Assembly (NCBI GenBank): GCA_034716155.1
Contig: JAYEFR010000108.1
Span: forward strand, 1-61,820
Source of the DNA: Thermodesulfobacteriota bacterium
GTDB lineage: Bacteria > Desulfobacterota > Desulfomonilia > UBA1062
Direction of reading: 5' to 3'
Length of the DNA stretch: 61,820 bases
Shown one piece after another: positions 21,364 through 61,820 of this stretch. The first letter of the stretch is position 1. Each line of letters begins with the position of its first letter. Made by a program: the position numbers and the translations under genes. Under the pieces are notes generated by a model. The model was not told the DNA's origin and ran no database searches. It worked only from the letters and a program-made list of their open reading frames with translations.

Positions 21364-21389
21364 GGATTAAACACAAGGAGAAATCTATT

Positions 21390-24300
21390 ATGTATAAAAA
21401 AATTATATTTCTCATAGGCCTTTGTTTATTGTTCGCATATAAGCCAAGCCTGGCCGATGATACAGAGATCTTTTCTGGAGGGGTGATAAATGTTACACCC
21501 AATGTGCTTATCATATTCGACACATCAGGATCTATGGCAGACAGTGTCCCATGCAGTGTATATGACCCTAGTTATGATTATGCTGAAGACTTTGGCGGTG
21601 GTGGATGGGGCAGCTCTACTGCTTCTTATGAGAGATATAAGGTCTATTATAAATCAGGTAGTGGCGGATGGGGTAGTGCTTCCTGGGAAGAATTTACCAA
21701 CAGTACCTCGGACATTGGCTGTGCAGATGCAAAAGATACACTGGATACCATTGGTCACTGGCAGGGGTACATAGGGAATAGTTCTCCATATAACTGTGGG
21801 ACATCCAATTCCGAGACCCTGGCAACAGGGAATTTCCTGAATTTTTTGGATTCTCCAATTATAGAGACTGATTCAAAAATCAATGTTGCCAGAAAAGCAA
21901 TAAAAGAGCTGTTAGATAGTATTGAAGACAACGCAGTCAGATTTGGCCTGATGAGATTTAATGATAGTAACCGAGGGGGCAGTATTGTCGCTGAAATGGG
22001 TTCTAGTGATGCCACCATAAAGACTGTGCTTGATATCTTTACTGCACATGGTGCGACCCCACTTGCCGAGAGCCTTGCAGAGGCAGGCCTGTATTTTGCC
22101 GGCAAGTCATCTTGGGCGAACCCAGGCACAACATATACATCTCCAATACAATGGAGATGTCAGAAGAATTATATAATATTGATGACCGATGGTAACTCAT
22201 GGAGTGATGAAGGTGACGGCAATGGTGATAATATATTCACCCGTGCCGACTACATTAATGGAAACTCTATCGGTGATTATGACAATGATGGGGTTGATCC
22301 AGGGACAGACGCTAATGGAGGCACTCATTGGCTCGATGACGTGGCAAAGTTCCTACATGACGAAGACCTCAGGATAGATCCTGCAACAGATAGTGCAGGT
22401 GAATCCTTTGATACTGATACCTATGGCACCTCTTGGCAACAGAACATAGTCACCTATACGATTGGTTTTGCAACTAAGACTGATGATTTACTCTTGAAAA
22501 GTACTGCGGATGATTTTCACGGTCACGGCGCGTATTACTCCTCTGAAAATAGTAGCCAACTGCAAGGGGCATTTAGTCATATTATAGGGGAAATCCTAGA
22601 GACAAATGCAAGCTTCATAGCGCCGGTGGTACCTGTGAGCAAGATGAACAAGGCCTATGCAGGAAACAGCGTTTACTTGGCTCTGTTCAGGCCTGTAGAT
22701 GCATCTGGATTCTGGGAAGGGAACCTTAAAAAATTCGGACTCAATTGCGATGGAGACCTCCTACAGAAGGACGGCAGCCCTGCTGCAGACGCAACTGGCC
22801 AGATCCTGAGTAATGCTTCCTCCTGTTGGAGTAGCGCGGATGGAAGTGATGTAAAAAAAGGTGGCGCTGGCGAGACAGCGCTTTCTCAGACTGATAGAAC
22901 ATTCTATACATATCAGGGCACTGCAAATAAGAGCCTGACCCATAGTGATAATGCCTTTTCAGTGGATAATACAGCGATCACCGCAACAACAATGGGAGTG
23001 GCTACTGATACTGAAAAGGATGATCTGATCAATTATCTAACGGCAAAAGGTGTGTATGCTCAAGGCGGGACTAGTGAGAGGGAATGGGTTCTAGGTGATA
23101 TCCTTCATTCAAAACCTGCAGTTATGTATGATGGGAATAACACTGTAATCTTTGGGGGTGCAAATGACGGGTTTCTGCATACCCTTGTAGATGATGATAA
23201 AGGGACCGGTACCTTAAGCGATGATTCAGTAAGCGAGAAATGGTGCTTTGTACCATGGGATCTCTTGCCAAACCTGCACCTGTTGAAAGACAGTTCAACT
23301 CACAGCTATTTTGTAGATGGATCTCCTGTCGTGTACAGAGAAAGCAATACCCAATATGTGTGCTTTGGCCTAAGACGTGGTGGCAATAAGTACTATGCAT
23401 TAAAAGTAGGTGAATATAACGCTAATGGAGATTATATCACAGATGGCTATCTCGCCCCTGAATGGGTATGGGAAATCAGTTCAAGTATACTGGGCTCTGA
23501 GACCCTTGCACAGTCATGGTCCACGCCACGTGTATGTACAATAGCAACTGGTGGTGGATCCACTACCAAGGTTATACTACTTGCAGGGGGCTATGATGTA
23601 GCAAATGAGGATCTGGATACACCTGCCTTGGGTGATTCCAAGGGCAGAGCAGTGTATGCAGTGGATGCATCAACAGGCATTTTAAGTGCAGTCATAAACT
23701 TCAATCATAGTAATTATTCTGACATGAGATATTCTATCGTTGACCTGGCTGAATTTGATTATGACAGTGATGGCCTGGATGATACTATCTATGCACCATC
23801 TCTAGGTGCTAACCTGTTTGTATTTAAAGACAGGGACAAAGATGGTTCGTGGGAGAAAAGGTGGCTGTTTAAGGCCAGAAATGGTTCAACTGCTACCACA
23901 TTGCTGAAATTTCTCTACGCACCGGATGTAGTCTTAGAGACCTTTGGTGATTATGTCTATATCGGCACAGGTGATAGGGCACATCCATCAGAGATAAATA
24001 CTACCAATCGCTTTTATGCAATAAAGAATAAATGGACAACCCCATGGACAGATGGTTCAGCCAATAACACCCTCACAGAAGGAGACCTGGTAGATGTGAC
24101 AAGTTACGGCTACAATCCAGCCACATATACAGCACTTGCGAGTGGAAATGGCTGGTTTATCAAATTCGATAAGCGCAGTGGTGAAAAGATGGTCTCCACC
24201 CCTATTGTATTTAACAAGATAGTGTTCTTTTCTACCTTTAGCCCAGATCCTGGTTCTGGAACAGATAAGTGCGCTACGCAGGGACTAGGAGGAGGAAGAC

Positions 24301-24563
24301 TCTATGCATTAAACTATATGACAGGACAGGCGGCTTTAAACTTTGATGAAACCAATGATGCTGGAGGTGAGGAGGTGCTTGCTAGGTCAGATAGAAGCAT
24401 ATACCTCGGAACCGGCATCCCATCCCAGCCAACCCTTATTGTAACCTTAAAGGGTACTAAACTGCTTATCGGGACTCAAGGCACTGGAGGTAGTGCTGGG
24501 ACAAGGACATTTAACGTGCCAGGTGGTCAGGGTGCAAAACCCTATTACTGGAAACAAAACTAA
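21390..24563 (+). CDS. pilY1: PilY1/PilC tip adhesin with vWA domain, copy 2
   Basis: Signal peptide, DTSGS MIDAS, TPLAE, LGDILHS, GANDGFLH, DYDSDG, YYWKQ; AAGGAG RBS. Confidence 0.92.
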   Translation: MYKKIIFLIGLCLLFAYKPSLADDTEIFSGGVINVTPNVLIIFDTSGSMADSVPCSVYDPSYDYAEDFGGGGWGSSTASYERYKVYYKSGSGGWGSASWEEFTNSTSDIGCADAKDTLDTIGHWQGYIGNSSPYNCGTSNSETLATGNFLNFLDSPIIETDSKINVARKAIKELLDSIEDNAVRFGLMRFNDSNRGGSIVAEMGSSDATIKTVLDIFTAHGATPLAESLAEAGLYFAGKSSWANPGTTYTSPIQWRCQKNYIILMTDGNSWSDEGDGNGDNIFTRADYINGNSIGDYDNDGVDPGTDANGGTHWLDDVAKFLHDEDLRIDPATDSAGESFDTDTYGTSWQQNIVTYTIGFATKTDDLLLKSTADDFHGHGAYYSSENSSQLQGAFSHIIGEILETNASFIAPVVPVSKMNKAYAGNSVYLALFRPVDASGFWEGNLKKFGLNCDGDLLQKDGSPAADATGQILSNASSCWSSADGSDVKKGGAGETALSQTDRTFYTYQGTANKSLTHSDNAFSVDNTAITATTMGVATDTEKDDLINYLTAKGVYAQGGTSEREWVLGDILHSKPAVMYDGNNTVIFGGANDGFLHTLVDDDKGTGTLSDDSVSEKWCFVPWDLLPNLHLLKDSSTHSYFVDGSPVVYRESNTQYVCFGLRRGGNKYYALKVGEYNANGDYITDGYLAPEWVWEISSSILGSETLAQSWSTPRVCTIATGGGSTTKVILLAGGYDVANEDLDTPALGDSKGRAVYAVDASTGILSAVINFNHSNYSDMRYSIVDLAEFDYDSDGLDDTIYAPSLGANLFVFKDRDKDGSWEKRWLFKARNGSTATTLLKFLYAPDVVLETFGDYVYIGTGDRAHPSEINTTNRFYAIKNKWTTPWTDGSANNTLTEGDLVDVTSYGYNPATYTALASGNGWFIKFDKRSGEKMVSTPIVFNKIVFFSTFSPDPGSGTDKCATQGLGGGRLYALNYMTGQAALNFDETNDAGGEEVLARSDRSIYLGTGIPSQPTLIVTLKGTKLLIGTQGTGGSAGTRTFNVPGGQGAKPYYWKQN

Positions 24564-48482: not shown

Positions 48483-49571
48483 CTACATCGATCCGGAAAT
48501 AGATCTGTCTATAACTTCATTTATGATCTGCTGGATCCTGTCCGGTATGCCTTTTATCTTTATATCCAGAAAACCTCTGATAATAAGAGAGCGCGCCTCG
48601 TCGTCGGTAAGCCCGCGTGTCATGAGATAACTGAGTTCTTCTTTTGATATCCTCCCTACTGAGGCCTCATGGGATAGATTTATGTCCGGGTGCCCACCCT
48701 TTAGTTCCGGTATGGAATGGATGACGCCATTCTTGCCCAGCAAAAGACCACTGCACTCCATGTGTCCTAAAGATCCGGGAGAACTCCCTGATATCATCTG
48801 CCTTGAAATAACGGTACCACTATCAGAAACCACCCTACTTATAATCTCTGCACTGGAACTATTCCCTTCAAGGATAGCTTTGGATCCCATGTCAAAATAA
48901 GAATCTTTTTTTGAGTATATAATAGAGTAAAACCTGGCAGAACCACCTGCCATCACCCGTGCCACAGGATATGACACAGTCTTCTTTACTGATGTCATTG
49001 CAACATAATTCGATATATATCTTGCATTTTCACCTACCAGAATTGCGCCTACAGGGTATACATCTACATCACTTGCCCAATTATGGATCATGGTATAACC
49101 CAATATAGCATCTCTGCCGAGATATGTCTCAGTTATACCTATATGCCTTCCTTTATGGGTTTGCTGTGATGTGGTACACCCATTAATGATATGGGCCTCG
49201 GAATCTTCTCCTAATTCTATGATGTTATGAATAACCTGGGTTGCGCCTGCACTCTCCAGCAAAAAACCTGCCTGAAAGGGAATATCTATCTTTACACCAG
49301 GTTCTACCTTGATATAATAGCCTACAAGAGGCAGGTTTGAAGCCGTCTTGGTAAATTCATTCCTGTCCTTTTCTATAAGTCTAAATACAAGATTATCACG
49401 GACATGAGGATACTTGTCCATCGCATCAGCCAGAGGCAACACCTCAAGCCCTTTTATTCTGTGCGAGGCCTCAAAAATACTGTGATCCAATACCAAAAAT
49501 CTCCCACAACTGGCTATACCCGGGTCATAACCTACATCTAAAAGTCTATCTTTATCTACTTTAGGCTGCAT
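48483..49571 (-). CDS. SufB/SufD-family Fe-S scaffold (SmsB-like)
   Basis: MIH.W, GH.EC.GL, IPEL, SHEA.VG.I, YLM.RG, IIRGF. Confidence 0.9.
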   Translation of the reverse strand: MQPKVDKDRLLDVGYDPGIASCGRFLVLDHSIFEASHRIKGLEVLPLADAMDKYPHVRDNLVFRLIEKDRNEFTKTASNLPLVGYYIKVEPGVKIDIPFQAGFLLESAGATQVIHNIIELGEDSEAHIINGCTTSQQTHKGRHIGITETYLGRDAILGYTMIHNWASDVDVYPVGAILVGENARYISNYVAMTSVKKTVSYPVARVMAGGSARFYSIIYSKKDSYFDMGSKAILEGNSSSAEIISRVVSDSGTVISRQMISGSSPGSLGHMECSGLLLGKNGVIHSIPELKGGHPDINLSHEASVGRISKEELSYLMTRGLTDDEARSLIIRGFLDIKIKGIPDRIQQIINEVIDRSISGSM

Positions 49572-50319
49572 GATTTTCCCTTTCCGCCTCTTCAAGACAT
49601 TTTTGACACTCTTTGTAACCCCTCGTCCGTATCTCCTCAAAAATTTCACTTGGCGAACCGTAACCCAATATACGACCACCCATCATCACATACGCCTTGT
49701 CTGCCCTTATATAATCAAGGATAAAACCTGTATGAGTGATGATAATAGAAGAACGTTTCCTCTTTTTTATAGGTTTATCCTTCTCAAGAATAATCTTCAA
49801 GGCATCCGCTATCAAAGAGATATTTTCTATGTCCACCCCTGATTCCGGCTCATCCAGGAGGAGAAGATCCGGCATTTGCACCATAAGCTGAAGGATCTCT
49901 GATTTTTTTCTCTCCCCACCGGAGAAACCCACATTTACATCCCTATCCAGATAAGGGGACATATCCAATATTTCACAGGCGTGTTCAATAGCCTCTTTAT
50001 CAGGGTTCATGGTATCAAGTAGCGTCCTTAACCTTACACCCTTTATAGAAGGAGGATACTGAAATGCAAGACCGATTCCAAGTTGTGTCCTTTCATAGGT
50101 AGACATGCCTGTGATATCTTTACCCTTAAACAATATATTGCCTTTTGTGATATCATATTTAGGTAGCCCTACAATCGAACCCAAAAAGGTGCTTTTCCCG
50201 GACCCATTGGGGCCAAATATCACAGCAGTCCTGCCCTCTTCGAGAGTAAACTCTATGCCCTTTAGTATTTCTCTGCCCCCGGAAGACGCCCTAAGTCCTT
50301 TAATCTCTAATAATTCCAT
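49561..50319 (-). CDS. SufC-like ABC ATPase (SmsC-like)
   Basis: GPNGSGKS, GFSGGE, DEPESGVD, ITHTG; C-terminal CQKC. Confidence 0.92.
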   Translation of the reverse strand: MELLEIKGLRASSGGREILKGIEFTLEEGRTAVIFGPNGSGKSTFLGSIVGLPKYDITKGNILFKGKDITGMSTYERTQLGIGLAFQYPPSIKGVRLRTLLDTMNPDKEAIEHACEILDMSPYLDRDVNVGFSGGERKKSEILQLMVQMPDLLLLDEPESGVDIENISLIADALKIILEKDKPIKKRKRSSIIITHTGFILDYIRADKAYVMMGGRILGYGSPSEIFEEIRTRGYKECQKCLEEAERENHAA

Positions 50320-50455
50320 ATCCCTCTCCTCATGATTTGCGAATAATGCCAGCATAGCATACATCTCGAAAAATAAGCAATGGATCCTTGGCCTTATTGA
50401 CAATGTGACTGTATAGAGATAGTAAAAAGGTCAACGATTCTTCTTGGAGGTATGT

Positions 50456-51037
50456 ATGCCCGTAAAAGAGATTATGGTCTTTGATACACCTGGAGTAAAA
50501 AATACTAATGATTGCATAGAGATAGCGATCAAATCCATAAAAAAAGATGGATATAAGCATATTGTAGTGGCATCAACCACTGGGAAGACCGCCCTAGCCT
50601 TCTACGATGCCCTAAAGGATCTTAATGTAAACCTGGTGATTGTAACCCACAGTGTGGGGTTTGGCGAGCCAAATACAGATGAATTTGACCCAAAGATAAG
50701 AGACAGACTCTTATCGGCAGGCATACCTGTATGCACAGGCACTATACTTTCCCATTCTCTGGAAAAATCATTCATGGACAGCTTTGGAGGTATATATCCT
50801 GCCTACATAATTGCCAATACACTTAGGAGGTTTGGAGAAGGTACAAAAGTGGCAATAGAAATCGTGCTTGAGGCCTGCGATGCAGGGCTAATCCCTGAGG
50901 GTGAAGAGGTATTGAGCATAGGAGGAACCGCAAGGGGATCTGATACTATCCTTGCAATAAAAACCAGACCATCAAAAAGGTTTTTAGATCTGGATGTACT
51001 TGAAATTTTGGCGAGGCCAAGGGGAAGAGACATTTAA
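50456..51037 (+). CDS. Stand-alone pyruvate-kinase C-terminal-like protein (MTH1675-like family)
   Basis: PG..NT, VVASTTG.TA, VTH..GF, TLR.FG.G.KV..EI...A.DAG. Confidence 0.75.
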   Translation: MPVKEIMVFDTPGVKNTNDCIEIAIKSIKKDGYKHIVVASTTGKTALAFYDALKDLNVNLVIVTHSVGFGEPNTDEFDPKIRDRLLSAGIPVCTGTILSHSLEKSFMDSFGGIYPAYIIANTLRRFGEGTKVAIEIVLEACDAGLIPEGEEVLSIGGTARGSDTILAIKTRPSKRFLDLDVLEILARPRGRDI

Positions 51038-51094: not shown

Positions 51095-51877
51095 CTATAT
51101 TGCCAGGGTGTTTAGGATATGCTCAACAACCCTATTGCTGGGCGAACCATCAGGTAAATCAATTAGTGGTATACCATCAAAATCATACTCCCTTATATAA
51201 TCATCCTCCGGAATCCATCCCAGCAATTCAATAGAAGTCCTACCTAAAATCTTGTTCACCTCTTCTTCACTTCTTACCCTGTTTAAGATCAGCCCTACCC
51301 TCTGGCATGCCATAGCCTTGTTATCATAAGCAACATGTTTAATCGTAGATACAACATTTATCCCCTTAGCTGACGTATCTGATACCAACACAAGATCATC
51401 CACAGTCTTCATCACCCTTCTGTTTACCTGTTCAACACCTGCTTCTCCGTCAATCAAGACAACATCAAAGCTTTGGGAAAGAGACTTTATTATATCCTTC
51501 AGAAGGTCATTTACCTGACAATAACACCCCGAACTCTCAGGTCTGCCTATAGCAAGGAGTGCAAAATGAGAGTCTTCAGAGAGTGCATCAAAGACTTCAT
51601 AGTCGAGCATATTTAGGACCTCAGATATATTAGATTTATCATATCTTTCTCCCTTTTTGACCTTTGCTATTAGTTCATTTCGTATGTCATCAACCGTTTT
51701 TTTGACTTCAACGCCTAAAGCTGTAGCAAGACCAATAGCAGGATCAGCATCCACTGCCAAAACCTTTAACCCTCCTCTTTTTGCAAGAAGTTTAACCATC
51801 ATGGCAGTTACAGAGGTCTTCCCTACGCCACCCTTTCCACATACTGCTATGGTCCTGGTTTGTCTTGTATTATCCAT
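51095..51877 (-). CDS. cooC: CooC/AcsF-family Ni-insertion ATPase
   Basis: GKGGVGKT, DADP, GRPE..GCYC, D.EAG.EQ.NR. Confidence 0.88.
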   Translation of the reverse strand: MDNTRQTRTIAVCGKGGVGKTSVTAMMVKLLAKRGGLKVLAVDADPAIGLATALGVEVKKTVDDIRNELIAKVKKGERYDKSNISEVLNMLDYEVFDALSEDSHFALLAIGRPESSGCYCQVNDLLKDIIKSLSQSFDVVLIDGEAGVEQVNRRVMKTVDDLVLVSDTSAKGINVVSTIKHVAYDNKAMACQRVGLILNRVRSEEEVNKILGRTSIELLGWIPEDDYIREYDFDGIPLIDLPDGSPSNRVVEHILNTLAI

Positions 51878-52634
51878 CTTTACCTCTTATTTTTATATCC
51901 AATTTTAGATCCCTTAGGGCTACTTTTCTTATTTTCCTTAGATCAGTAAACTCAGAGCATACATCCTTATATTCGCAAGTCTTACAGTCAAATGAGGTTT
52001 CTTCAATCATTTTGTTCATTGCACCAACTACTCTTCCAACCCATTTGGCAATATCTTTAAGTTCCTTTACATCCTCTCTGCTTGAGGTGACAAATATCAC
52101 CTCTACCGCATCTACGTAATCCTTTTCTTTGAATTTATCAATCAATGCACCTCCAAGCACATTCAATGAGAACCCTTCCCTCAAGGCCTCTTTACTTACC
52201 CTACTCCATTCCCTCTGATATTGCGACACAGCCCTTAACATATAACCCATTAGATCTATATCATAGCGTATATTCTCGATTTCCCTATATCTGTCATAAC
52301 TGTTTTCCTCATTAAACCCTTTCCCTCCAACAATCACAACCCTTCCAAAAGGCAAGCTTTCCCCTTGGCTTGCCTGTAAATCAGGGCCTATAAGTGATAT
52401 AATGCCATCTCTTCCCTCGTTTTGTGACTCAGTCCAGATAACGAATGACACAGATTCCTGACGTGGATTACCAAGCTCCACCCCGACATCCTCACTCAAT
52501 ACAATATTTCTTCCCCCTCCAAGAGGCCAACTAGCATTAGTACCCATATGTTGTATTTCACATACCTTGCCCTCATCAGATTTTCTCCCCATATACTCTC
52601 TTATATCTTTAACTGCATTGTCGAAAAGTCCCAT
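51870..52634 (-). CDS. Truncated acetyl-CoA synthase (AcsB/CdhC)-like protein
   Basis: VELG.P, I.LIGPD, LPFG, W.RVSK.A...GFS...LG resemble the ACS middle domain; ends in CKTCEYKDVC. Confidence 0.6.
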   Translation of the reverse strand: MGLFDNAVKDIREYMGRKSDEGKVCEIQHMGTNASWPLGGGRNIVLSEDVGVELGNPRQESVSFVIWTESQNEGRDGIISLIGPDLQASQGESLPFGRVVIVGGKGFNEENSYDRYREIENIRYDIDLMGYMLRAVSQYQREWSRVSKEALREGFSLNVLGGALIDKFKEKDYVDAVEVIFVTSSREDVKELKDIAKWVGRVVGAMNKMIEETSFDCKTCEYKDVCSEFTDLRKIRKVALRDLKLDIKIRGKDG

Positions 52635-52740
52635 AACGCTATAATATTCTATAAGTCACTGAAATTATTGACTATAGAAGCCCCCTTTGGGTCTTTATGA
52701 TCCATTAAACCATTCCAATCCAGGAGTTAATTTTATACAT

Positions 52741-53532
52741 CTAGACAGACGGCCTTGATCGCAACGCTTCCTGGGCAAGCAGTGCTGCCCCAAGGGCTCC
52801 ATTTATTTGGGGATCAACTTTTGTCTTTTTTATCTGTACACCCAATACCTCTGACAATGCTGTATACATACCTACATTTTTTGCAACACCGCCTGACATT
52901 ATGACATCAGTCTCAACCCCGATACCCTTTACCAATGATGCTACCCTATGTGCCATTGCCCTGTGCAGGCCACTTACTATATCAGGAATTTCTTTGTCAT
53001 CATTGACCAAAGATATAACCTCTGTCTCTGCAAATACTGTACACTGGTTGGAAATGCTGACCGGACTGTTCGAGCTAAGGGATATTTTCCCCATATCCTC
53101 TAACTTTATCTCCATGGTATCTGCCATAATCTCCAAAAACCTGCCCGTACCTGATGCACATTTGTCATTATACACATATCGTATAACATTACCGTTTTCA
53201 TCTACTTTAATTGCCTTTGCATCTTGTCCTCCTATGTCGATTATTGTCCGAACCGTTGGGAGGAACCAATATGCACCCTTTCCGTGACATGTTATCTCTG
53301 ATATAACCTCATCTGCAAATGGGATCTGTTTTCTACCATATCCTGTACCAATGCAATACTTGATTGCATCCATAGAAATATCAGCCTCGGATAAGGCCAT
53401 ATCCATAACCTCTTTGGCTGACTCCTCTGGCCTTGTTTTTGCCCTTATAACAGGGGCGGAGAGAATATTGCCATTGTCCATTATAACTACCTTTGCAGTA
53501 AGAGACCCAACATCACACCCAGCAACAATCAT
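52741..53532 (-). CDS. ASKHA [4Fe-4S] activase (HgdC/BcrAD-like), copy 2
   Basis: DVGS, TGYGR, EI.CHGKG, DIGGQD, NDKCASGTGRFLE, CTVFAE. Confidence 0.93.
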   Translation of the reverse strand: MIVAGCDVGSLTAKVVIMDNGNILSAPVIRAKTRPEESAKEVMDMALSEADISMDAIKYCIGTGYGRKQIPFADEVISEITCHGKGAYWFLPTVRTIIDIGGQDAKAIKVDENGNVIRYVYNDKCASGTGRFLEIMADTMEIKLEDMGKISLSSNSPVSISNQCTVFAETEVISLVNDDKEIPDIVSGLHRAMAHRVASLVKGIGVETDVIMSGGVAKNVGMYTALSEVLGVQIKKTKVDPQINGALGAALLAQEALRSRPSV

Positions 53533-53533
53533 T

Positions 53534-54322
53534 TTATATTGCTCTCCCTTCTAATCTTTCTTTTGCAAACACTGCAGCCCCAAGGGCCCCAGCAACCTGA
53601 GGATCTACCCTACTCTTTTTTATCTTCACCCCTAACAACCTTTCCAGGCTCTTGACTACCCCTATATTCTTAGTGACTCCTCCCGTCATATAAACATCCT
53701 TCTCCACACCAACACTATTAGCCAATATCGCTACCCTTTTTGCCATTGCCTCATTGACACTAGCCCCGATATCCTCAATAGATTTCCCTTCGTTAAGATT
53801 ACGGATAACCTCTGCCTGTGCCCATACTGTGCAGGTAGAAGCAAGGGTAACAGGTGCCCTTGCTCTAGCAGACAGTGCCCCTAAATCTTCCAACCTTACA
53901 CCTAAGACCTTCGCCATAACTTCCAAAAACCTTCCTGTCCCTGCAGCACACTTATCATTGGTAATAAACTTAACAAGTTTTCCAATCCTATCTATCTTCA
54001 TGGTCTTACAGTCTTGCCCCCCAATATCGATTACTGTCCTGGCTGTTGGGAGAAGAAACTGGGCCCCTTTCCCATGACAAGCTATTTCTGAGATAACATC
54101 ATCTACAAATGGGATTTTGGCTCTACCATAACCTGTACCTATACAATACTCGATTGCATCCATAGAAAGCCCAGCCTTTGATAAGGCCATGTCCATAACC
54201 TCTTTGGCTGATTCCTCTGGCCTTGGTTTACTCCTAATAACCGGGGATGCCAGGATCTTACCATCGTTCATTATAACTACCTTTGCAGTTAATGAACCAA
54301 CATCACATCCAGCAACAATCAT
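53534..54322 (-). CDS. ASKHA [4Fe-4S] activase (HgdC/BcrAD-like), copy 1
   Basis: DVGS, DIGGQD, NDKCAAGTGRFLE, CTVWAQ. Confidence 0.93.
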   Translation of the reverse strand: MIVAGCDVGSLTAKVVIMNDGKILASPVIRSKPRPEESAKEVMDMALSKAGLSMDAIEYCIGTGYGRAKIPFVDDVISEIACHGKGAQFLLPTARTVIDIGGQDCKTMKIDRIGKLVKFITNDKCAAGTGRFLEVMAKVLGVRLEDLGALSARARAPVTLASTCTVWAQAEVIRNLNEGKSIEDIGASVNEAMAKRVAILANSVGVEKDVYMTGGVTKNIGVVKSLERLLGVKIKKSRVDPQVAGALGAAVFAKERLEGRAI

Positions 54323-55716
54323 TTACGTATCCTCCTCACAGTCAGAAATTCATCTATCCTGTTTATAAGGGCATCTACTGATTCAACCCTATTGTCAAAG
54401 GCATCGCCATATAAAATAAGAGTCGGCATCCCCAACCGCTCTGTATCCCTTGCGAGTAATTTAACCATGCCCCAGGTATTTCTGCATCCCATTGTCCCCA
54501 TATACACTAAAAAGTCTGCATTCATAATCTTGGCTGACCCAACAGTATCATCCAGCCACATTCCCGGATCATCATAAGGCCCCCTGATCTGTTTTACCAT
54601 TGGCATACGCGACGTTTGTGCAGCTAAAGAATCAATCATGGTGTCAAGATTCGTTGTATCTATAACGTATCCTTCCTCCTCTCTTCCTTTAGCATATGGG
54701 GCATCTACTTGCCAGAAATCTGTCATCATTGTCCCGATATGGCTGATACCGTTATCCCTTAGCCATGTCCAGTATTTCAACTCAGCACAATAATGATCAA
54801 TATAGAAAAAAAGACCTCTTGCCTTCTCCTGACCATCTCCTGCTATTCCCTTGGCTGCATTTTTTTTTGCTATCTTCAACATTGCTTCCAGTATTTCTGT
54901 ACCCACCTTATTTCCACCAAATAAGATTTTTACATCATAAATAAGAATATTATACATTCCGGGCTCTGGATTTGGGATAAGCCTCTGTAATTCCTGAAGC
55001 TCATTTATGAGTTCATCCTGTTTGATTATCTCTTTACAGATACTGTAAAGTTTATCGATGTCCAACTTTTTCCCTGTCTGCTCCTCAAGGAATGCCGTCA
55101 TCTGCCTGAAATCTTCCCGATGATACTCAGTCGCCCTTTCATCGATCAAGGTCGGGGGATAATTCATCTGAAAAGATGGCAGATCAAGATATGCAGATGC
55201 AAAGGCAAAGGAATTTGCATTTGAGTCACAGACCCCGGCAGTGCTGTACAGAATAAAATCCGGCATTGTCCCAATCCCTGCCAAAAGGGGGCCAAGGGCT
55301 ACTCGCTGACCGGAACAAGATGTCTCTGTAAAACCTACTTCGCAACAATAATCGAGACTCTCGGCTATACCCTTTTGCCATACAGCAGTATACAGTGCTG
55401 ATAGTCCCTCAAGACATAGCGGTACAACGTCGAATGCATCCAGTATTACGGGAGAAAAATTATAGGTAACAAGAGCTATCTTTTTCCCTCTTTCATGTGC
55501 TGTCAGGATATTCTTAAGGTAGCCAGCCATAGCCTTTAGCGTTAGAACGCCTGGATCACCCATAGATATCAGTGCATCCAGCGCTTCCTTAAAATTAGGA
55601 GCAAACCGGATTGCCTCTCTATATTCCTTATCACTCCCCTCACGTGTTTTAGATGCCTGATAAACAATGCTCCAAAGTTTCCAGTCATAATTATATTCTT
55701 TTAATACACTCCTCAT
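54319..55716 (-). CDS. 2-hydroxyacyl-CoA dehydratase/benzoyl-CoA reductase family subunit (alpha/BcrB-like)
   Basis: CSGQ, VCDS, GCRN cysteines; FLEEQTGKKLD; D.FD.R. Confidence 0.8.
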   Translation of the reverse strand: MRSVLKEYNYDWKLWSIVYQASKTREGSDKEYREAIRFAPNFKEALDALISMGDPGVLTLKAMAGYLKNILTAHERGKKIALVTYNFSPVILDAFDVVPLCLEGLSALYTAVWQKGIAESLDYCCEVGFTETSCSGQRVALGPLLAGIGTMPDFILYSTAGVCDSNANSFAFASAYLDLPSFQMNYPPTLIDERATEYHREDFRQMTAFLEEQTGKKLDIDKLYSICKEIIKQDELINELQELQRLIPNPEPGMYNILIYDVKILFGGNKVGTEILEAMLKIAKKNAAKGIAGDGQEKARGLFFYIDHYCAELKYWTWLRDNGISHIGTMMTDFWQVDAPYAKGREEEGYVIDTTNLDTMIDSLAAQTSRMPMVKQIRGPYDDPGMWLDDTVGSAKIMNADFLVYMGTMGCRNTWGMVKLLARDTERLGMPTLILYGDAFDNRVESVDALINRIDEFLTVRRIRK

Positions 55717-55732
55717 TTTCTCTTGCCCCTTT

Positions 55733-55969
55733 TTACAATGTCATACTGATCTTGGCACCTGCCTTAATCCTTTGAATGTACAGGTTTGCCCTCTCCTTAA
55801 GCACATTCGAATCCACTTTTTTTGCTATATACTCCAATGTTTTCAAGGCCCTGTCATGAAACAGGGTCAGGGCATCTATTGACCTCTGTCTTTCAACAAG
55901 TATCCTTTCTATATCCATTGCTATCCCTTTTAAGACATCGATTGCTACTGCCTCTTTTTCTTCCGCCAT
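55733..55969 (-). CDS. Small helical hypothetical protein
   Basis: AGGAGGT RBS; fills the gap between the two dehydratase-type subunits. Confidence 0.7.
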   Translation of the reverse strand: MAEEKEAVAIDVLKGIAMDIERILVERQRSIDALTLFHDRALKTLEYIAKKVDSNVLKERANLYIQRIKAGAKISMTL

Positions 55970-55987
55970 TAAATATCACCTCCTAAA

Positions 55988-57121
55988 TTAACTTATCCTT
56001 TCCAGAAATGCATCCATTCGCATTTTAATCCTGCCTGTCTCCACCAGAGGGCCATATTCCCTCTCCATCCTCATGCAGGGGATACCATTAGCCTCCAGGT
56101 CCCTCTCAAATATGCCATTCTCTGAACCATGCAGATCACAAAATCTTATATTTTGTAAGATTACTCCGTCCACCTTTGCCTTTTCTGCCCTCTCTTTTAG
56201 GAATCTAAACCTCTCTTTGTAGTATCCGAACATGCGCGGGCAGAAACTATGGGTCAGATATCTCTTACAAATAGCAACCAATGGGTCTCCATCTTCTTCA
56301 ATTAGATCCACATAAGACCTTGAGCCAAAACATAGTGTATCTGCAACAACTATTGCACCTGCTTCCTCTATAAGTCCTACAAGGCTGACATCATCGTTTA
56401 CACTCCCCCCCAATAGCAGCCGCTTCTTTCCTGCTATCCTTTCCTTGCTTTTTCCAAGTTCATCCAAAAGTTCTTCCAAAAGTTTATTATACTCATCCCT
56501 TGGGATCGCTGTCCCTGCTATGATAACAGCCAGTGCATCTGCACCAGAGATTGGGGGCTCGTCTGCCATCCTGAGTTCATCCAATCTCTTTAATAAGGTT
56601 CTGCCTTTATTATATACACTAATCGCCTTTTTCAGATCATCATCTGTAATCTTGACCCCAAAGTATTCTTCAAGGCTACAAATAAGTTTTTTAGTCTCTT
56701 CTACAAACCATTTTAGACTGTAGTCCGCTACCTTATGAGGCACTCCATAGTAATAGAACCAGGACGGGAGTATGCCTTCATAATCCTCTGAGGCCTTTCT
56801 CCAGCACTCATCCAACCGCCGCATGGAATCGCACCCATTGCATATAACTGCTCCATCAAGGAACTTATATTTTCCTTCACCTGCCAGTTGCAGTACACAT
56901 TTGGGAAAGCTGCAGATAACAGGGCCATAATATATATCCCCAATAGAGGTAGATGTAGCCTCAATACCTCTTAGCCGAAAGGGGAGCATACCTGCAGCAT
57001 AGATAATCTCTTCCGGTACATAAGTACAGGTATACCCTACTACCTTCCCACCTCCATCTTTCCGTTTCTTGACATAACGATTAAAAAGGGTTGTTGTAGT
57101 CTCGCTGATCTCCTCTCTCAT
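55988..57121 (-). CDS. 2-hydroxyacyl-CoA dehydratase/benzoyl-CoA reductase family subunit (beta/BcrC-like)
   Basis: CTYVPEEII.AAG, CS, CDSMRR, C.G.R, FCDLH, RMDAFLE. Confidence 0.88.
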   Translation of the reverse strand: MREEISETTTTLFNRYVKKRKDGGGKVVGYTCTYVPEEIIYAAGMLPFRLRGIEATSTSIGDIYYGPVICSFPKCVLQLAGEGKYKFLDGAVICNGCDSMRRLDECWRKASEDYEGILPSWFYYYGVPHKVADYSLKWFVEETKKLICSLEEYFGVKITDDDLKKAISVYNKGRTLLKRLDELRMADEPPISGADALAVIIAGTAIPRDEYNKLLEELLDELGKSKERIAGKKRLLLGGSVNDDVSLVGLIEEAGAIVVADTLCFGSRSYVDLIEEDGDPLVAICKRYLTHSFCPRMFGYYKERFRFLKERAEKAKVDGVILQNIRFCDLHGSENGIFERDLEANGIPCMRMEREYGPLVETGRIKMRMDAFLERIS

Positions 57122-58425
57122 CTTTCACCTCCCTCTTTACACAGAGTATTTCTGATAGAAGCAATGGCATTATCCAGACCACTCGAATCTTCACCAGGTA
57201 GTGGTGTAAAAAGCTCATCTGCTACTGGTTTAATTGCATCAGCAATCACTGTGATCATCCACCCTGCCGCTACTCTAAGTTCATCTGTATCAATAGATGT
57301 CATAATACTGGAGATAAGATTAGAGATGATCTCTGGTTTATTTCCATGTATGCTGTTCATAACCCTAAGCAGAGAATTTACTACTTCGCCGATTTCCTGC
57401 GAATCAAGATCGATTAATCCCTTTGAAAAAACCTCAGTAACCTCCTGGGCTGGGAGATCTTCAAACACACTGATCTTCTTCCTTACTTCTCTGATCTTTG
57501 GATTTTTAATAGAAGAAAACGCCGAGGTAGTAGCCATAAACAGGGTAGGATCAGCCAGAATTACATCAGCTATCGAGTTTGTTATTGACTCTGCGTCTTC
57601 TGCCAATGCCACTTTTACCTTACACATAAGTTCAGGATCAATGGTCGAAACTACATCACGCAATTTGTTCGCAAGATCGATCTGAAGTAGAGGGATGCCA
57701 GCCTCACTAAAAAACACACTTCCTGTATGTAACTTCCTTATCCCCTCGATGAAAGAATTCACCAACAGGCCTATTTCTTTACCATCAATATTGGTTCGTA
57801 GTATGGTAAACAAAAGGTCTGCAAGCAAATCCGGGGCAGCATTATCGAATGACCTCAGGATCTCTTTTAATGATTTGATAACCATATTGATAAGTGTGAC
57901 AACAACTGAACCCAGGCATGCTATCTTGGCAGGGTATTTCCATAATGTATCAATTAATATCTTTGCTGTAGCTGCCACACATTCCTCAGAATTATCTGCC
58001 ATCTCCTTGAGTTCACCAAAGTCCGTACCCACAATTATATCGTTGATAGGCCCCTTTAGACGATCAGCATAGTATGTAGGATTTTCCTTATGAACATCAT
58101 TGATATCAATGGCTAGTAATGTGATTAATCTACCGAGATTTTTAAATAAAGCCGACTCACTTAATTTTACCGTTGGCACTGATTTTGGATCAATAACACC
58201 CGATACCATCTTTATTATATTGTTCGAGACCTTTTTCTTGAAAATGCTTTCCCCAGACCAGGTTGTTAGCACATCACCTAACACAGAAGTAATTACCTTC
58301 ATAAAACCAGGGGTCCTTATCACATCAGATATTAGCTTGCTTACTAGATCAGTGACCTCATCTCCATGGCCTATTCCTTTTCCCGGATTAATATTTGTTT
58401 GTTCTGCTCTTTCTTTCATATCCAT
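57118..58425 (-). CDS. Unknown helical repeat protein (paralog 3)
   Basis: 435 aa; IRTP.F, LWKYP, P.L...ID..E motifs shared with the two upstream ORFs; GGAGGTG RBS. Confidence 0.75.
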   Translation of the reverse strand: MDMKERAEQTNINPGKGIGHGDEVTDLVSKLISDVIRTPGFMKVITSVLGDVLTTWSGESIFKKKVSNNIIKMVSGVIDPKSVPTVKLSESALFKNLGRLITLLAIDINDVHKENPTYYADRLKGPINDIIVGTDFGELKEMADNSEECVAATAKILIDTLWKYPAKIACLGSVVVTLINMVIKSLKEILRSFDNAAPDLLADLLFTILRTNIDGKEIGLLVNSFIEGIRKLHTGSVFFSEAGIPLLQIDLANKLRDVVSTIDPELMCKVKVALAEDAESITNSIADVILADPTLFMATTSAFSSIKNPKIREVRKKISVFEDLPAQEVTEVFSKGLIDLDSQEIGEVVNSLLRVMNSIHGNKPEIISNLISSIMTSIDTDELRVAAGWMITVIADAIKPVADELFTPLPGEDSSGLDNAIASIRNTLCKEGGER

Positions 58426-58481
58426 TAAGATATCACCTCCATATATGCTTTCAACATAGACGCTTAATCAACCTAAGCCAT

Positions 58482-59147
58482 TTATTTCCCCCTTTTAAAC
58501 TTAGCCCGTACTCTTCCTCCAACCATACGCAATCCCCATGAAACAAAAGGAGGCCTTTGATCAAGCACCGCTCCCACTAATGTATTTGATGCATCAGAGA
58601 ACTCCTTTTTATCAATGTTCGAGACCACACCAGATATGATCTCCCCTATGAGTTCAGGGTTTTCTTGATAAATTTTGTTGATATAGCGCGAAGCAGAATT
58701 GATCCCACTCCCAATAGCCTTTGCTCCAGGGCCCCTTATCCCATCAACGATAGCAACCCTTAACTCTGGGGAGGCATCCAATATCCCCTTGAGGAGTTTA
58801 GCGTAAGCATTTAGACCTTCCTTAAACCCTTCCTTATCAATATCGCCTCCAATATTTACTATAAAAACCTTCAAGAGCTGAGGCGGGAATGCACCTGCTA
58901 TTTGTTTGCCCATCTCTGATAATGCCCCTATAACCCAATTGATAATTGCAGGTATCGAACCCATAATTGAGAGGATGACCTCCGGGTCTTCCCAGATAAG
59001 AGTCTTTATCATAGAGGTGCCATTCTTAGGATCTATGTTACTTAAGTAATCCCTGATGATATCCTTAAAAAGAGGGGTTCGCAGAATTTCTTTGAGTATA
59101 CCCCCTGACTTTTCATTACTATCCAATATTTGTTCTATCTTATCCAT
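58482..59147 (-). CDS. Unknown helical protein (paralog 2)
   Basis: ILKEILRTP.FK...IDP...KTLIWEDPE..LS.MG..P.IIN...FPP.L...DIDKE. Confidence 0.78.
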   Translation of the reverse strand: MDKIEQILDSNEKSGGILKEILRTPLFKDIIRDYLSNIDPKNGTSMIKTLIWEDPEVILSIMGSIPAIINWVIGALSEMGKQIAGAFPPQLLKVFIVNIGGDIDKEGFKEGLNAYAKLLKGILDASPELRVAIVDGIRGPGAKAIGSGINSASRYINKIYQENPELIGEIISGVVSNIDKKEFSDASNTLVGAVLDQRPPFVSWGLRMVGGRVRAKFKRGK

Positions 59148-59148
59148 T

Positions 59149-59562
59149 TTATTCTCCTTTCATTGGCTCTTTCCCATCTAATAATTCAGAAAATATTGGA
59201 GATAGATTATTTATAATCTTTGACAAATTACTAAGGGCCCTTTCCATTGTCTCTTTATCAATATCCTGTACTATTGCACGGGCAAAATTTTGAATAAGGT
59301 CTGGGGGAAAGTTTTCTATCTGCAGGCCCACCTCGTCCAGGGCCTTTATGATGGTATTGATAATAGAGGGGGCTGCCCCCATCAAAGACAAAACCAATTC
59401 AGGATCTTGCCATATAAGGGTTTTTACCAGGTCACGTGCAGACTCCGGATCAATACTGTTTAATACAGATCTAATGGTGTTTTTGCATACCGGCTTTTTC
59501 AGCAATTCCCTTAAAATTCGGTTTATTGCATCTATAATCCCTTTATTTATAGTATTTGCCAT
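59149..59562 (-). CDS. Unknown helical protein (paralog 1)
   Basis: AGGAGG RBS; ILRELLKKP...IDP...KTLIWQDPE..LSLMG..P.IIN...FPP.L...DIDKE. Confidence 0.78.
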   Translation of the reverse strand: MANTINKGIIDAINRILRELLKKPVCKNTIRSVLNSIDPESARDLVKTLIWQDPELVLSLMGAAPSIINTIIKALDEVGLQIENFPPDLIQNFARAIVQDIDKETMERALSNLSKIINNLSPIFSELLDGKEPMKGE

Positions 59563-59572
59563 AATCTTCCTC

Positions 59573-60826
59573 CTATAGAGTCTTACAGTCAAAAAAGTGC
59601 CTTGCTGTTTCCATCTGGCAAAGCTGTTTCCCACCTTCCCATAGCTGTATTATCTTTAGATCCCTCCAGTGCTTTTCAATATCCCACTGCCTATCAGCGC
59701 CATATGTCCCCAGGACCTCCATTGCCTTCTCACAGTCTTTCATAACCCGGTCACATATGAACATCTTGTACATCCTTGCCTTCGCACCTACCTCTGCAGA
59801 CCATCTCGGACCGTACAGGTCAGGCCGATCCAGCATTCTTGCCATGCGGTAGAGTACAACCCGGCTGATCTCTATCCCCGTCACGATCTCTGAGAGCTCA
59901 GCTGCTATTGCATCATGCTCTTTAAGCGGCCTCCCATTAAGGGTTTTTTTTGAACAAAAGTCATAAAGTGTATCATATACATCCATCATAGCCCCTGTAC
60001 AGAATCCAGTTGTTATCATAGCCATGGTCATAACTTCTCTAAAATACAGGGCATCGGTTCCCGGCCCCCATGCCCTGTACCAGGATGGAACTCTCACATC
60101 CTCGAACCAGACATCACTGTTTTTATCTGCGGATATCCCTGTCTTCTCATAGGGCTTGCCCTGGGTCACGCCAGGGGTATCAGCAGGTACAAGGATAAAG
60201 GCCATGTCTTTTTCATCATCTGAGCCTGGCTTTGTAGTACATACTAGCCCTATAAGATCAGCAACGCCGCCTGAATTGCTAGGCCACAATTTATGGCCGT
60301 TTATCACCCACTCATCACCATCAAGCACTGCTGTAGTCTTTATCGTCCTTCCATGTAAAATCTCCAGATTTTCTATGTCAGAGCCCCCTTGAGGCTCTGT
60401 CATAAATACTCCTCCAAAAAAAGGCTTGTCTCCTGTATACATTGGGGCAAACTCGGCGCATAATCTCCTGTTCACATGAGGTTTTGCAGCTATCATCATG
60501 AGAGGCCAAAAGCCTGCTGCATAGGCTATAGCTACCCCTGGATCAGCCCTTCCCATCTCTTCAAAGAACAAGGCGGCAAAGGTTCCTAAATAATCACTCT
60601 CCGCCACTCCCCAGCCTCCGAATTCAGCCGGGATAAAGACCTTCTGAAGTCCTAGATCTATCATCAAGGCCTTAAGCGCCGGCTCGATAATTGTATCGTC
60701 ATCCCAGGCTTCATCATACTGCCTTCGCATGGGCATGACATAAGTATCCGCCCAAATTCTTATAATATCCTTTATCTTTATGGCTGGGGAAAATATCTCA
60801 TTTGATAATTTATCTAATCTATTCAT
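59573..60826 (-). CDS. Acyl-CoA dehydrogenase, probable catalytic subunit
   Basis: P.EFGG.G, MTEP.GGSD, INGHK.W, EKHWRD.K..QLWEGG with Glu. Confidence 0.9.
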   Translation of the reverse strand: MNRLDKLSNEIFSPAIKIKDIIRIWADTYVMPMRRQYDEAWDDDTIIEPALKALMIDLGLQKVFIPAEFGGWGVAESDYLGTFAALFFEEMGRADPGVAIAYAAGFWPLMMIAAKPHVNRRLCAEFAPMYTGDKPFFGGVFMTEPQGGSDIENLEILHGRTIKTTAVLDGDEWVINGHKLWPSNSGGVADLIGLVCTTKPGSDDEKDMAFILVPADTPGVTQGKPYEKTGISADKNSDVWFEDVRVPSWYRAWGPGTDALYFREVMTMAMITTGFCTGAMMDVYDTLYDFCSKKTLNGRPLKEHDAIAAELSEIVTGIEISRVVLYRMARMLDRPDLYGPRWSAEVGAKARMYKMFICDRVMKDCEKAMEVLGTYGADRQWDIEKHWRDLKIIQLWEGGKQLCQMETARHFFDCKTL

Positions 60827-60847
60827 ATTATTCCTCCTTTTGTTCTT

Positions 60848-61820
60848 CTAAAGGCTCGTTGAGCCATAATAAGCCCTGGCCACATCCATCTCAACAGGAG
60901 TCCTCCCTCCAAGGTAGACCTGCAGGGTCTTCAGGTCTCGCCAGTGTTTTTCCACATTCCATTCCTTGGCATATCCCGCTGACCCCATCAATTCCATGGC
61001 CCTGTTTATTGCATGAATGCAGGAATCTAAGACCTTTATTGAAACAGTCTCTGCAAGGATAAAGAGAGTTTCCGCCTTGATTCCAAACGCCACTGGTTTT
61101 GCAATAGCCCTGGCTAGACTATGCACAAGAAGCCTGGAATTTATGATATCCATCGCTACCTGAGCAAGCACTGCTGCATCCATGGGGTTTTCCTTGAGCA
61201 GCCCCCCTGTCTTTATCACCCTGTTATCCGCCCAATCCTTAACAAGCCTGTAGACATCCATTGTTGAACCTACGGCTATAGCACCCGAAAAGAGATCTAT
61301 CCATGTGATAAGCCTCTTATAAGCCAGCTCATCAATAGGAATAACATGACCGGCAGAGACCTTAACCTTCTTAAAGTCAACATCTGCATTGCGGCTTGCT
61401 AAAAGGCCGGTAGTCTTTAATAGCTCTCCTTTCTTCACACCAGGTCCTTTCCCCGGCACAAGGGCAAGGACGAATCCATCAGGCGCCTCCGCGATTACTG
61501 CATACATGCACGCATTGTGACCTGAATTAATGGGCCTGGCATTCTTTGCATTCAATACCCAGACATCTCCATCCTTTTTCATATCAGCCTGGACTTCTCT
61601 ACCTGAGAGTGTCTTGCGGGGGTCTGTATCAACATTGCCCAAACCAGGAAGTATCAGGGAAAACAGCTTTACATCATCCATGCTGCAAAAAATAGAGCTA
61701 ATCTCCTTTTTGATATCCTTATCAATCTTTTGGTCCGCTATGAGCGTGGCTCCCAGGGCCATGTTCATAGCGGATATATATCCAATCCCTGGATCAGCCC
61801 TGCCGATCTCCTCATATGCC
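60848..61820 (-). CDS. Acyl-CoA dehydrogenase-like subunit, degenerate (5' end outside the window)
   Basis: Frame open to the window edge (AYEEIGRADPG...); MELMGSAGY..EW.VEKHWRD; YLGG in place of WEGG; no TEP motif. Confidence 0.85.
   Translation of the reverse strand, partial: AYEEIGRADPGIGYISAMNMALGATLIADQKIDKDIKKEISSIFCSMDDVKLFSLILPGLGNVDTDPRKTLSGREVQADMKKDGDVWVLNAKNARPINSGHNACMYAVIAEAPDGFVLALVPGKGPGVKKGELLKTTGLLASRNADVDFKKVKVSAGHVIPIDELAYKRLITWIDLFSGAIAVGSTMDVYRLVKDWADNRVIKTGGLLKENPMDAAVLAQVAMDIINSRLLVHSLARAIAKPVAFGIKAETLFILAETVSIKVLDSCIHAINRAMELMGSAGYAKEWNVEKHWRDLKTLQVYLGGRTPVEMDVARAYYGSTSL

Follow-up and report, generated by a model that had tools for sequence, protein, structure and literature searches.

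Positions 51,095 to 61,820 of contig JAYEFR010000108.1, from the assembly GCA_034716155.1 of a Thermodesulfobacteriota bacterium, hold an operon that encodes a previously undescribed relative of benzoyl-CoA reductase (BCR) with unusual partners. The window, as we use the word, is the whole 61,820-nucleotide stretch analysed; it is the entire contig, C108 among the contigs of this 2.9-Mb, 96% complete assembly. At the core of the operon is an eight-gene cassette that specifies a large all-helical protein (hel435), an HGD-D-family subunit (beta), a small open reading frame (ORF; s78), a second HGD-D subunit (alpha), two ASKHA-type activases, a protein built on the middle domain of acetyl-CoA synthase (ACS; mini-ACS) and a CooC-type ATPase. 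The model we favour, with a probability of about 0.6, is that the cassette forms an ATP-driven, BCR-type radical reductase, which probably acts on a bulky or hydrophobic acyl-CoA-type substrate, together with a flavoprotein partner and novel accessory proteins. Among the observations in its support are the tight coupling of a pair of HGD-D subunits with a pair of activases and the recurrence of the cassette in 42 loci from four phyla. Its partner set, in which atypical flavoproteins stand beside an orphan helical family, a protein with the ACS middle domain and a CooC-type ATPase, is without precedent for the family formed by BCR and the 2-hydroxyacyl-CoA dehydratases (HAD).

An eight-gene cassette recurring in four phyla

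Scanning one genome per prokaryotic species, we found the cassette in 42 loci, all of them in metagenome-assembled genomes (MAGs) labelled Desulfobacterota (Syntrophales, Smithella, Desulfomonilia, Desulfobacterales and Desulfosudis), Spirochaetota, Bacillota or Omnitrophota. The preliminary description of this DNA had allowed that the gene set might not co-occur elsewhere; these 42 loci show that it does. By tblastn with the window proteins, the recurring order is hel435 - beta - (s78) - alpha - activase - activase - mini-ACS - CooC, and hel435 lies immediately upstream of beta in every locus holding both. Contig ends cut 10 of the 42 loci. The whole set is present in 27 of the 32 that are long enough to tell; in this last group the CooC and mini-ACS genes also stand together 27 times, and L007 and L032 keep mini-ACS with no CooC gene.

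In an unbiased clustering of all ORFs from the 42 loci and the window, the hel435 family occurs in 37 loci, the beta and alpha families in 34 each, activases in 32, mini-ACS in 28 and CooC in 25. Among the remaining neighbours are a GMC-type flavoprotein of about 456 aa (25 loci), TetR regulators (13), acyl-CoA dehydrogenases (ACADs; 11), small helical paralogs (7) and aldehyde:ferredoxin oxidoreductase (AOR; 5). Together with acyl-CoA ligases and short-chain dehydrogenases/reductases (SDRs), the TetR, ACAD and AOR neighbours lend the loci a lipid or acyl-CoA flavour.

The spread of the cassette is patchy. A hel435 relative is found in 14 of 401 sampled genomes of the source genome's phylum, the source genome itself counted, and in 4 of 6 other genomes of the source genome's own family. 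The alpha family comprises 567 clusters at E <= 1e-60, which public records name generically 'benzoyl-CoA reductase/2-hydroxyacyl-CoA dehydratase'; the organism names among the 120 matches listed for it are all MAGs. Full-text searches of the literature found no description of the cassette.

Subunits of the putative reductase

We compared window proteins with Pfam and NCBIfam models and judged the NCBIfam scores by their curated cut-offs. Beta has BzdN as its nearest solved relative (8s02_B, E 4.9e-50), followed by HadC, MbdN and DCCP. In BzdN, the available text of PMC11971306 gives Cys36, 73, 100, 263, 293 and 327 as ligands of the [8Fe-9S] double-cubane cluster; measured against that list, the window beta has an aligned Cys at all six positions and HadC at only four. 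Eight Cys are invariant across 27 beta members (C32, C70, C75, C97, C264, C294, C328 and C349), including all six ligand equivalents, and beta is predicted to hold an [8Fe-9S] double-cubane cluster. Extra to the six ligands, and sequence neighbours of them, are C75 and C349, both invariant, and C106, which is nearly so. In the 129 nearest 50%-identity representatives, these three columns hold mostly Ser/His, Val/Leu and Asn/Val. In ten loci (L009, L012, L014, L016, L017, L020, L027, L034, L039 and L040), the CooC gene is directly followed by a second pair of HGD-D genes and one more activase, the third; the beta-like subunit of this second set likewise keeps six double-cubane Cys, and has Ser, Asn and Val in the three columns. 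Judging from these alignments, C75, C106 and C349 are conserved only in the cassette beta family.

An exhaustive search with beta yielded 3765 representative clusters (E <= 0.001). Each of the 150 top-scoring ones reaches at least 185 bits, versus 173 bits for solved BzdN. The six Cys are kept in 110 of the 130 nearest beta-like representatives. None of 129 full-length representatives reaches a curated family cut-off; among them, the one closest to BzdN reaches 392 bits and the one closest to DCCP 331. We built a FastTree from these 129 and 26 family members, in which the near-BzdN and near-DCCP representatives stand as proxies for the named references. A weakly supported split (0.60) sets the cassette betas apart together with one representative. 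Measured from the window beta, patristic distances are at most 1.65 to the nearest relatives, about 2.1-2.2 to the next neighbours and 3.2-3.6 to the BzdN-like and DCCP-like proxies. By scores and by distance to these proxies, beta does not nest within a characterised clade; such nesting, with the rest of the pathway adjacent, is what the preliminary description had named as refuting its reading. BCR was not found in 14 control genomes. The top NCBIfam match of beta is double_cubane (NF040772; 186.5 bits, cut-off 350), ahead of BzdN (171.6, cut-off 453.8), HadC (151.3, cut-off 700) and BcrC (141.9, cut-off 421). Between beta and alpha, s78 matches no Pfam or NCBIfam family and is 58-94% identical in L001, L003, L006, L007 and L008.

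Alpha is very divergent, and phmmer matches it to BzdO only at E 0.0045. A profile of 26 members finds HadB at E 9.9e-15, DCCP at about 1.5e-12 and BzdO at 6.3e-9. In the alignment with BzdO, the three cluster Cys C95, C128 and C380 correspond to invariant C134, C163 and C411 of alpha, and Glu65 to invariant E103; Trp46 falls outside the aligned range. An AlphaFold2 (AF2) model of alpha, with a predicted local distance difference test (pLDDT) score of 85, gives template modelling (TM) scores of 0.72 to BzdO, 0.73 to HadB (root-mean-square deviation, rmsd, 3.2), 0.71-0.72 to MbdO and 0.65 to DCCP, at 16-21% identity in the structural alignments. Model scores are 32.6 bits for HadB (cut-off 750), 28.1 for BzdO (cut-off 448.6) and 25.1 for double_cubane (NF040772, cut-off 350); alpha has only three invariant Cys. 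Alpha is predicted to be the catalytic subunit, with a three-Cys [4Fe-4S] cluster.

The two activases (262 and 263 aa) are 62% identical. A tree of 77 activases from the loci places all 35 of the first-position genes in a single clade (support 0.96); the 32 second-position genes are all found beyond a split with support 1.0. This pattern argues for an old duplication retained as a pair, like BzdP/Q or BcrA/D. The proposed BcrABCD/BzdNOPQ-type layout, with two different activases and two HGD-D subunits, thus holds. 2-Hydroxyacyl-CoA dehydratases use one homodimeric activator. Against the BzdQ model, activase 1 scores 216.5 bits and activase 2 scores 204.9 (cut-off 380.2).

No subunit of the cassette reaches any curated NCBIfam cut-off. 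Dch, Had and Oah are absent from the window, as had been noted before, and from the recurrent neighbours of the loci; across the 96%-complete genome, they reach no more than 87, 79 and 69 bits, respectively, where the cut-offs are 292, 339 and 464. Collectively, these results describe a BCR-like architecture that lies outside the BCR, dehydratase and DCCP families as defined. Scores so far below the equivalog cut-offs, with no Dch, Had or Oah above theirs, point away from benzoyl-CoA: on sequence evidence, the substrate is another compound.

Operon, flavoproteins and accessory proteins

The ORF list of the window confirms that twelve co-oriented genes fill the stretch from 51,095 to 61,820 (Table 1). 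The twelfth, which the preliminary description did not itemise, proves to be s78. They are as tightly packed as first described, with intergenic gaps of -8 to 106 nt, three overlapping junctions (hel435/beta, -4; alpha/activase 1, -4; mini-ACS/CooC, -8) and a GGAGG-type ribosome-binding site upstream of most starts. Pfam, NCBIfam and structure matches bear out the proposed ACAD pair, HGD-D/activase tetrad, ACS-like protein and CooC. The operon had also been called truncated by the window edge. ACAD-a is indeed incomplete; as the window is a whole contig, however, the edge is the assembly end, and little is missing. The operons of L006 and L012, with full-length ACAD-a orthologs of about 413 aa, begin TetR - ACAD-a, which suggests that the contig end removes about 90 residues of ACAD-a and probably a TetR regulator gene.

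Table 1. Genes of the operon, with positions in the window
Gene	Product	Position	Strand	Basis or remark
ACAD-a	acyl-CoA-dehydrogenase fold, N-terminus lost at contig end	60848..61820	-	Pfam Acyl-CoA_dh_1/_2
ACAD-b	full-length acyl-CoA-dehydrogenase fold	59573..60826	-	Pfam N, M and C domains
hel137	137 aa, small all-helical paralog	59149..59562	-	AGGAGG before ATG at 59562
hel221	221 aa, small all-helical paralog	58482..59147	-	kinship with hel137 and hel435
hel435	435 aa, large all-helical protein	57118..58425	-	stop overlaps beta start
beta	377 aa, BzdN-like HGD-D subunit	55988..57121	-	Pfam HGD-D; nearest solved structure BzdN
s78	78-aa ORF between beta and alpha	55733..55969	-	own GGAGG site
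alpha	465 aa, divergent HGD-D subunit	54319..55716	-	Pfam HGD-D; three-Cys pattern
activase 1	262/263-aa-class ASKHA electron-transfer ATPase	53534..54322	-	BcrAD_BadFG/CoA_E_activ; TIGR00241 250 bits
activase 2	ASKHA electron-transfer ATPase, second lineage	52741..53532	-	BcrAD_BadFG/CoA_E_activ; TIGR00241 246 bits
mini-ACS	254 aa, ACS middle domain and Cys tail	51870..52634	-	Pfam CdhC only
CooC-type	260 aa, MinD/CooC P-loop ATPase	51095..51877	-	CooC1 3kje match, CxC

The three helical proteins match no Pfam or NCBIfam family. They are true paralogs, as had been proposed: hel137 shares 45% identity with hel221 (E 3e-32), hel435 finds hel221 with an E value of 7e-8, and profile-profile comparison joins hel435 to the small paralogs with a probability of 98.4% (E 4.6e-15). 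The hel435 family is rare, with 22 clusters among 5.8 billion proteins (E <= 0.001; 8000 candidates scored). Its AF2 model is all-helical (pLDDT 75), for which Foldseek finds no match in the PDB at E <= 0.001 and a wide VIA-align search finds helical hairpins only (best Z 6.2). An Atlas search returned unnamed clusters only, plus a weak DUF445 lead at 0.80. No fused longer form of hel435 was found among longer proteins, which is weak evidence. One helix in each of hel435 and hel221 is strongly hydrophobic (Kyte-Doolittle mean of 1.9-2.0 across 19 residues; 1.91 for the stretch at residue 57 of hel221). Prediction of a beta-hel435 complex gave a score of 0.00 and no verdict, and speaks neither for nor against binding. 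The small paralogs occur only where the ACAD pair is present (L001, L006, L007, L009, L012, L039 and the window); in L005, ACAD-b lies directly before hel435 and the small paralogs are absent. The helical proteins are probably accessory subunits or adaptors.

In ACAD-a, Leu occupies the canonical catalytic Glu position and a TEPxxGSD-type motif is absent. ACAD-b can be aligned over its full length with solved ACADs and carries Glu where the canonical base sits (LWEGG); its best NCBIfam match is cyclohexane-1-carbonyl-CoA dehydrogenase (147 bits, cut-off 650). From these sequence features the pair looks heteromeric, with ACAD-b likely the FAD-binding subunit and ACAD-a likely a non-catalytic partner. 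The Glu form of ACAD-b is found only in the window, in L001 and in the separate ACADs of L003 and L008. Copies in L039, L009, L012, L007 and elsewhere in the source genome (contig C186) carry Met in its place, so that neither subunit of these pairs has the usual base. In most loci a GMC-type flavoprotein, absent from the window operon, lies just upstream of hel435. With ACADs in 11 loci and the GMC-type enzyme in 25, the ACAD pair with its small paralogs is a minority variant.

The mini-ACS family profile aligns to residues 332-485 of Moorella ACS, within its middle (A2) domain, and NCBIfam models score the protein at 45-60 bits against cut-offs of 356-809. The A-cluster domain of AcsB/CdhC bears a Ni-binding Cys-Gly-Cys motif. 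Mini-ACS ends in a CxxCx5C tail, the three Cys of which (C217, C220 and C226) do not vary among 22 sequences. A PDB search with this tail by itself returned only chance-level LIM-domain matches (E 0.11). As the tail matches nothing solved, we do not claim the three Cys as A-cluster ligands. The CooC-type ATPase has CooC1 (3kje, E 1.8e-16) as its nearest solved relative, with the GKGGVGKT P-loop and the CxC (CYC) aligned; a deviant Walker A motif and a putative CxC metal-binding motif mark it as a CooC/AcsF-type protein. Mini-ACS and the CooC-type ATPase probably form a cluster- or metal-maturation device, or an electron-delivery device.

Several neighbouring genes deserve mention. A SufBD-type gene and a SufC-like ABC ATPase gene (48483-51037) follow the CooC-type gene directly on the same strand, with a 197-aa plus-strand ORF carrying a pyruvate-kinase C-terminal-like domain between them; this arrangement is not kept in other loci. 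In L001, the closest relative (93% identity), the second activase is followed not by mini-ACS and CooC but by a 503-aa HEAT-repeat protein and two oligopeptide-type ABC ATPases (L001:8523-14146). The remaining window genes are housekeeping ones: thiamine genes, PyrD, ComEC, LigA, DnaB, RecN, SecA, ArgJ and Suf. Two large plus-strand ORFs of 1037 and 1074 aa (2173-5286 and 21339-24563) have no NCBIfam match at E <= 1e-40, and a KamA-family radical SAM gene lies at 5942-7033.

The source genome carries two further sets. Contig C186 (L043:130-7113) has a second ACAD-a'/ACAD-b' pair (ACAD-b' 62% identical to ACAD-b), then a second alpha (62% identical to the window alpha and inside the core alpha clade), then a geranylgeranyl-reductase (GGR)-like FAD protein; another helical paralog begins at the contig end. 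The end of C14 and the start of C85 (L045; L044:2-3426) carry two activases, beta-like (43% identity) and alpha-like (25%) genes, two SDRs and a GMC-type flavoprotein about 30% identical to the cassette-adjoining ones. Two CruF-like membrane proteins of the carotenoid hydratase family lie immediately upstream of hel435 in L010 (L010:7541-9855), and a GGR-like FAD protein is found in L003 (L003:6260-9512); neighbours in L010, L003, L008, L028, L029 and L030 hint at isoprenoid or aldehyde chemistry, with AOR in five loci. An isoprenoid or steroid substrate, suggested by the CruF-like genes, the GGR-like genes of C186 and L003 and the apparently heteromeric ACADs, was rejected as a firm claim because these suggestive neighbours are not recurrent.

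Interpretation and comparison with known systems

We infer electron flow, cluster types and subunit contacts from homology. In the model we favour, the two different activases would form a heterodimer whose ATP hydrolysis pushes a low-potential electron into the double-cubane [8Fe-9S] cluster of beta. From there the electron would pass to the three-Cys [4Fe-4S] cluster of alpha, which would have an open iron site, and the carbonyl or thioester of the substrate would be reduced at alpha by one-electron (ketyl or H-atom-transfer) chemistry. A partner flavoprotein would also handle the substrate: the ACAD pair here, a GMC-type enzyme in most relatives. Of the undescribed ATP-driven system that the preliminary description proposed, the BCR-type layout and the place outside characterised clades stand. 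Its CoA-ester substrate and helical scaffold stay proposals, and so does its 'dedicated dehydrogenase', as the ACAD pair is present in only a minority of loci.

Several observations weigh against a BCR-type reductase. The flavoprotein partner is inconstant, with the GMC-type enzyme in place of ACADs in 25 of 42 loci, and the catalytic Glu of ACAD-b is replaced by Met (LWMGG) in five of six relatives aligned. L001, L003 and L008 lack mini-ACS and CooC within at least 4.7 kb downstream, and L003 and L008 have a single activase only. In alpha, His131 of BzdO, the second proton-relay residue and proton donor, is replaced by invariant Asn166, and Glu381 by invariant Arg412; the active-site chemistry should thus differ from that of BCR. 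Finally, the alpha profile scores HadB above BzdO, which leaves room for a dehydratase role.

Such a role, in which the activases only prime the enzyme, alpha and beta convert a (2-)hydroxyacyl-CoA into an enoyl-CoA by reversible dehydration and the product is then reduced or oxidised by the ACAD pair, as in clostridial had/hgd/fld operons, is in our view unlikely. In its favour are the preference of the alpha profile for HadB (E 9.9e-15), the fit of the alpha model to HadB (TM 0.73, rmsd 3.2) and the layout of the clostridial had operon, where an ACAD stands beside the dehydratase; GMC enzymes, which oxidise alcohols, would also suit a hydroxy-acid route. Almost all loci, however, retain two anciently separated activases where a dehydratase has its single, homodimeric one, and beta has six double-cubane Cys to the four of HadC. 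Neither a CoA-transferase nor a 2-hydroxyacid dehydrogenase is among the recurrent neighbours, and scores of 33 and 151 bits fall far short of the HadB and HadC cut-offs (750 and 700). That the enzyme is a genuine reductase of aryl-CoA or alicyclic-CoA esters, specialised on some unusual aromatic or polycyclic acid and representing a new substrate class for class I BCR, seems quite improbable. BzdN is the closest solved relative of beta, cyclohexane-1-carbonyl-CoA dehydrogenase is the best model for ACAD-b, and record titles place some carriers at tar, vent and hydrocarbon-rich sites; yet that ACAD-b score (147 bits) is far under its cut-off of 650, alpha reaches 28 bits of the 449 required for BzdO and has changed the His131 and Glu381 equivalents, and ring-hydration and ring-cleavage genes are missing from window, loci and genome.

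Slightly less probable still is a DCCP-like reductase of a small or non-CoA molecule, for instance a ketone that the GMC enzyme produces or a small compound that is unsaturated or oxidised. CoA esters are not substrates of GMC enzymes or AOR, double_cubane is the best NCBIfam model for beta, and of the 130 nearest beta-like representatives 110 retain all six Cys, with none of 129 reaching a curated cut-off. The 186 bits nevertheless fall below the model's own cut-off of 350, and the neighbouring ACADs and acyl-CoA ligases point to CoA esters. According to PMC11971306, moreover, DCCP is a homodimer with a homodimeric reductase, whereas the cassette has an alpha/beta pair, a three-Cys alpha and two different ATPases. 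We give least weight, and very little, to a biosynthetic lipid-modifying enzyme acting at the membrane through the hydrophobic helical proteins, by analogy with PlsA/PlsR and Ger, the BCR/HAD-family plasmalogen and ether-lipid enzymes. The hydrophobic helices of hel435 and hel221 (1.9-2.0 over 19 residues) would fit, as would an acyl-ACP thioesterase and a lipid A acyltransferase in L031, the CruF-like proteins of L010 and a UbiA protein in L012. These lipid-related neighbours are not recurrent, however; hel435 relatives occur patchily, in 14 of the 401 sampled genomes of the phylum, and TetR and GntR regulators are more usual for accessory catabolic operons.

A bolder reading, which we consider a rather unlikely speculation, is a new class of ATP-driven radical enzyme. 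Here C75, C106 and C349 of beta would hold an extra metal site or a modified cluster, loaded by CooC and mini-ACS, possibly with nickel, and the helical proteins would hold enzyme and flavoprotein at a hydrophobic substrate or membrane. If true, the chemistry on unactivated lipid, isoprenoid or alicyclic acyl-CoAs would go beyond that of known BCR/HAD enzymes.

ATP-driven electron 'archerases' carry out some of biology's hardest reductions. To our knowledge, very few of them (BCR, the 2-hydroxyacyl-CoA dehydratases and DCCP) have been studied. Uncultured anaerobes of the sulfate-reducing, syntrophic and spirochaetal kinds widely carry the cassette in sediments, vents, digesters and hydrocarbon-rich sites, where its generic public label can wrongly inflate the aromatic-degradation potential inferred from metagenomes. 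Knowledge of the substrate could lead to a new anaerobic pathway for recalcitrant lipids or alicyclic compounds, and could show ACS- and CooC-type parts put to a new use beyond C1 metabolism.

Parts of the cassette resemble several known systems. Like acetyl-CoA synthase (AcsB/CdhC) with its CooC/AcsF ATPase, it combines the ACS middle-domain fold with a CooC1-like CxC ATPase. Unlike that system, it has no carbon monoxide dehydrogenase, and mini-ACS has neither the N-terminal nor the A-cluster domain, only three tail Cys. The ACAD pair recalls the alpha2beta2 heteromeric steroid ACADs ChsE1/2, ChsE4/5 and Scd1AB, whose pattern is described in the available part of PMC8399759: the genes are adjacent, the window pair has Glu in ACAD-b only, and its ACAD-a has lost the TEPxxGSD-type motif. 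As for differences, specific kinship is undetectable, the cassette carriers are strict-anaerobe lineages, and Met-form pairs have the canonical base in neither subunit. With DCCP and its reductase DCCP-R (6eno, 7yyl), the cassette has in common the six-Cys [8Fe-9S] motif, which lies in its beta, and a reductase partner driven by ATP; it differs in its second, three-Cys subunit and its two ATPase lineages, where the accessible text of PMC11971306 describes a homodimer with a homodimeric reductase.

The comparison with HadBC/HadI (3o3m) rests on the HGD-D alpha/beta heterodimer, the TM score of 0.73 between alpha and HadB, and the ACAD encoded nearby; the two distinct activases, the six cluster Cys of beta versus four in HadC, and the lack of a CoA-transferase or hydroxyacid dehydrogenase gene set the cassette apart. 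With the Bzd/Mbd class I BCRs (BzdNOPQ, 8s02; MbdONPQ, 9g87/9gai) it shares the four-part architecture, a six-Cys double-cubane subunit, a three-Cys catalytic subunit with a conserved Glu, and two different HgdC-sized ATPases. Unlike them, its alpha is only 16-19% identical to BzdO/MbdO in structural alignment, has Asn for His131 and Arg for Glu381, and scores far below cut-off, and no ferredoxin and no Dch/Had/Oah context accompany it. To BCR as reported, the cassette adds a helical family, mini-ACS, a CooC-type ATPase and three extra Cys in beta.

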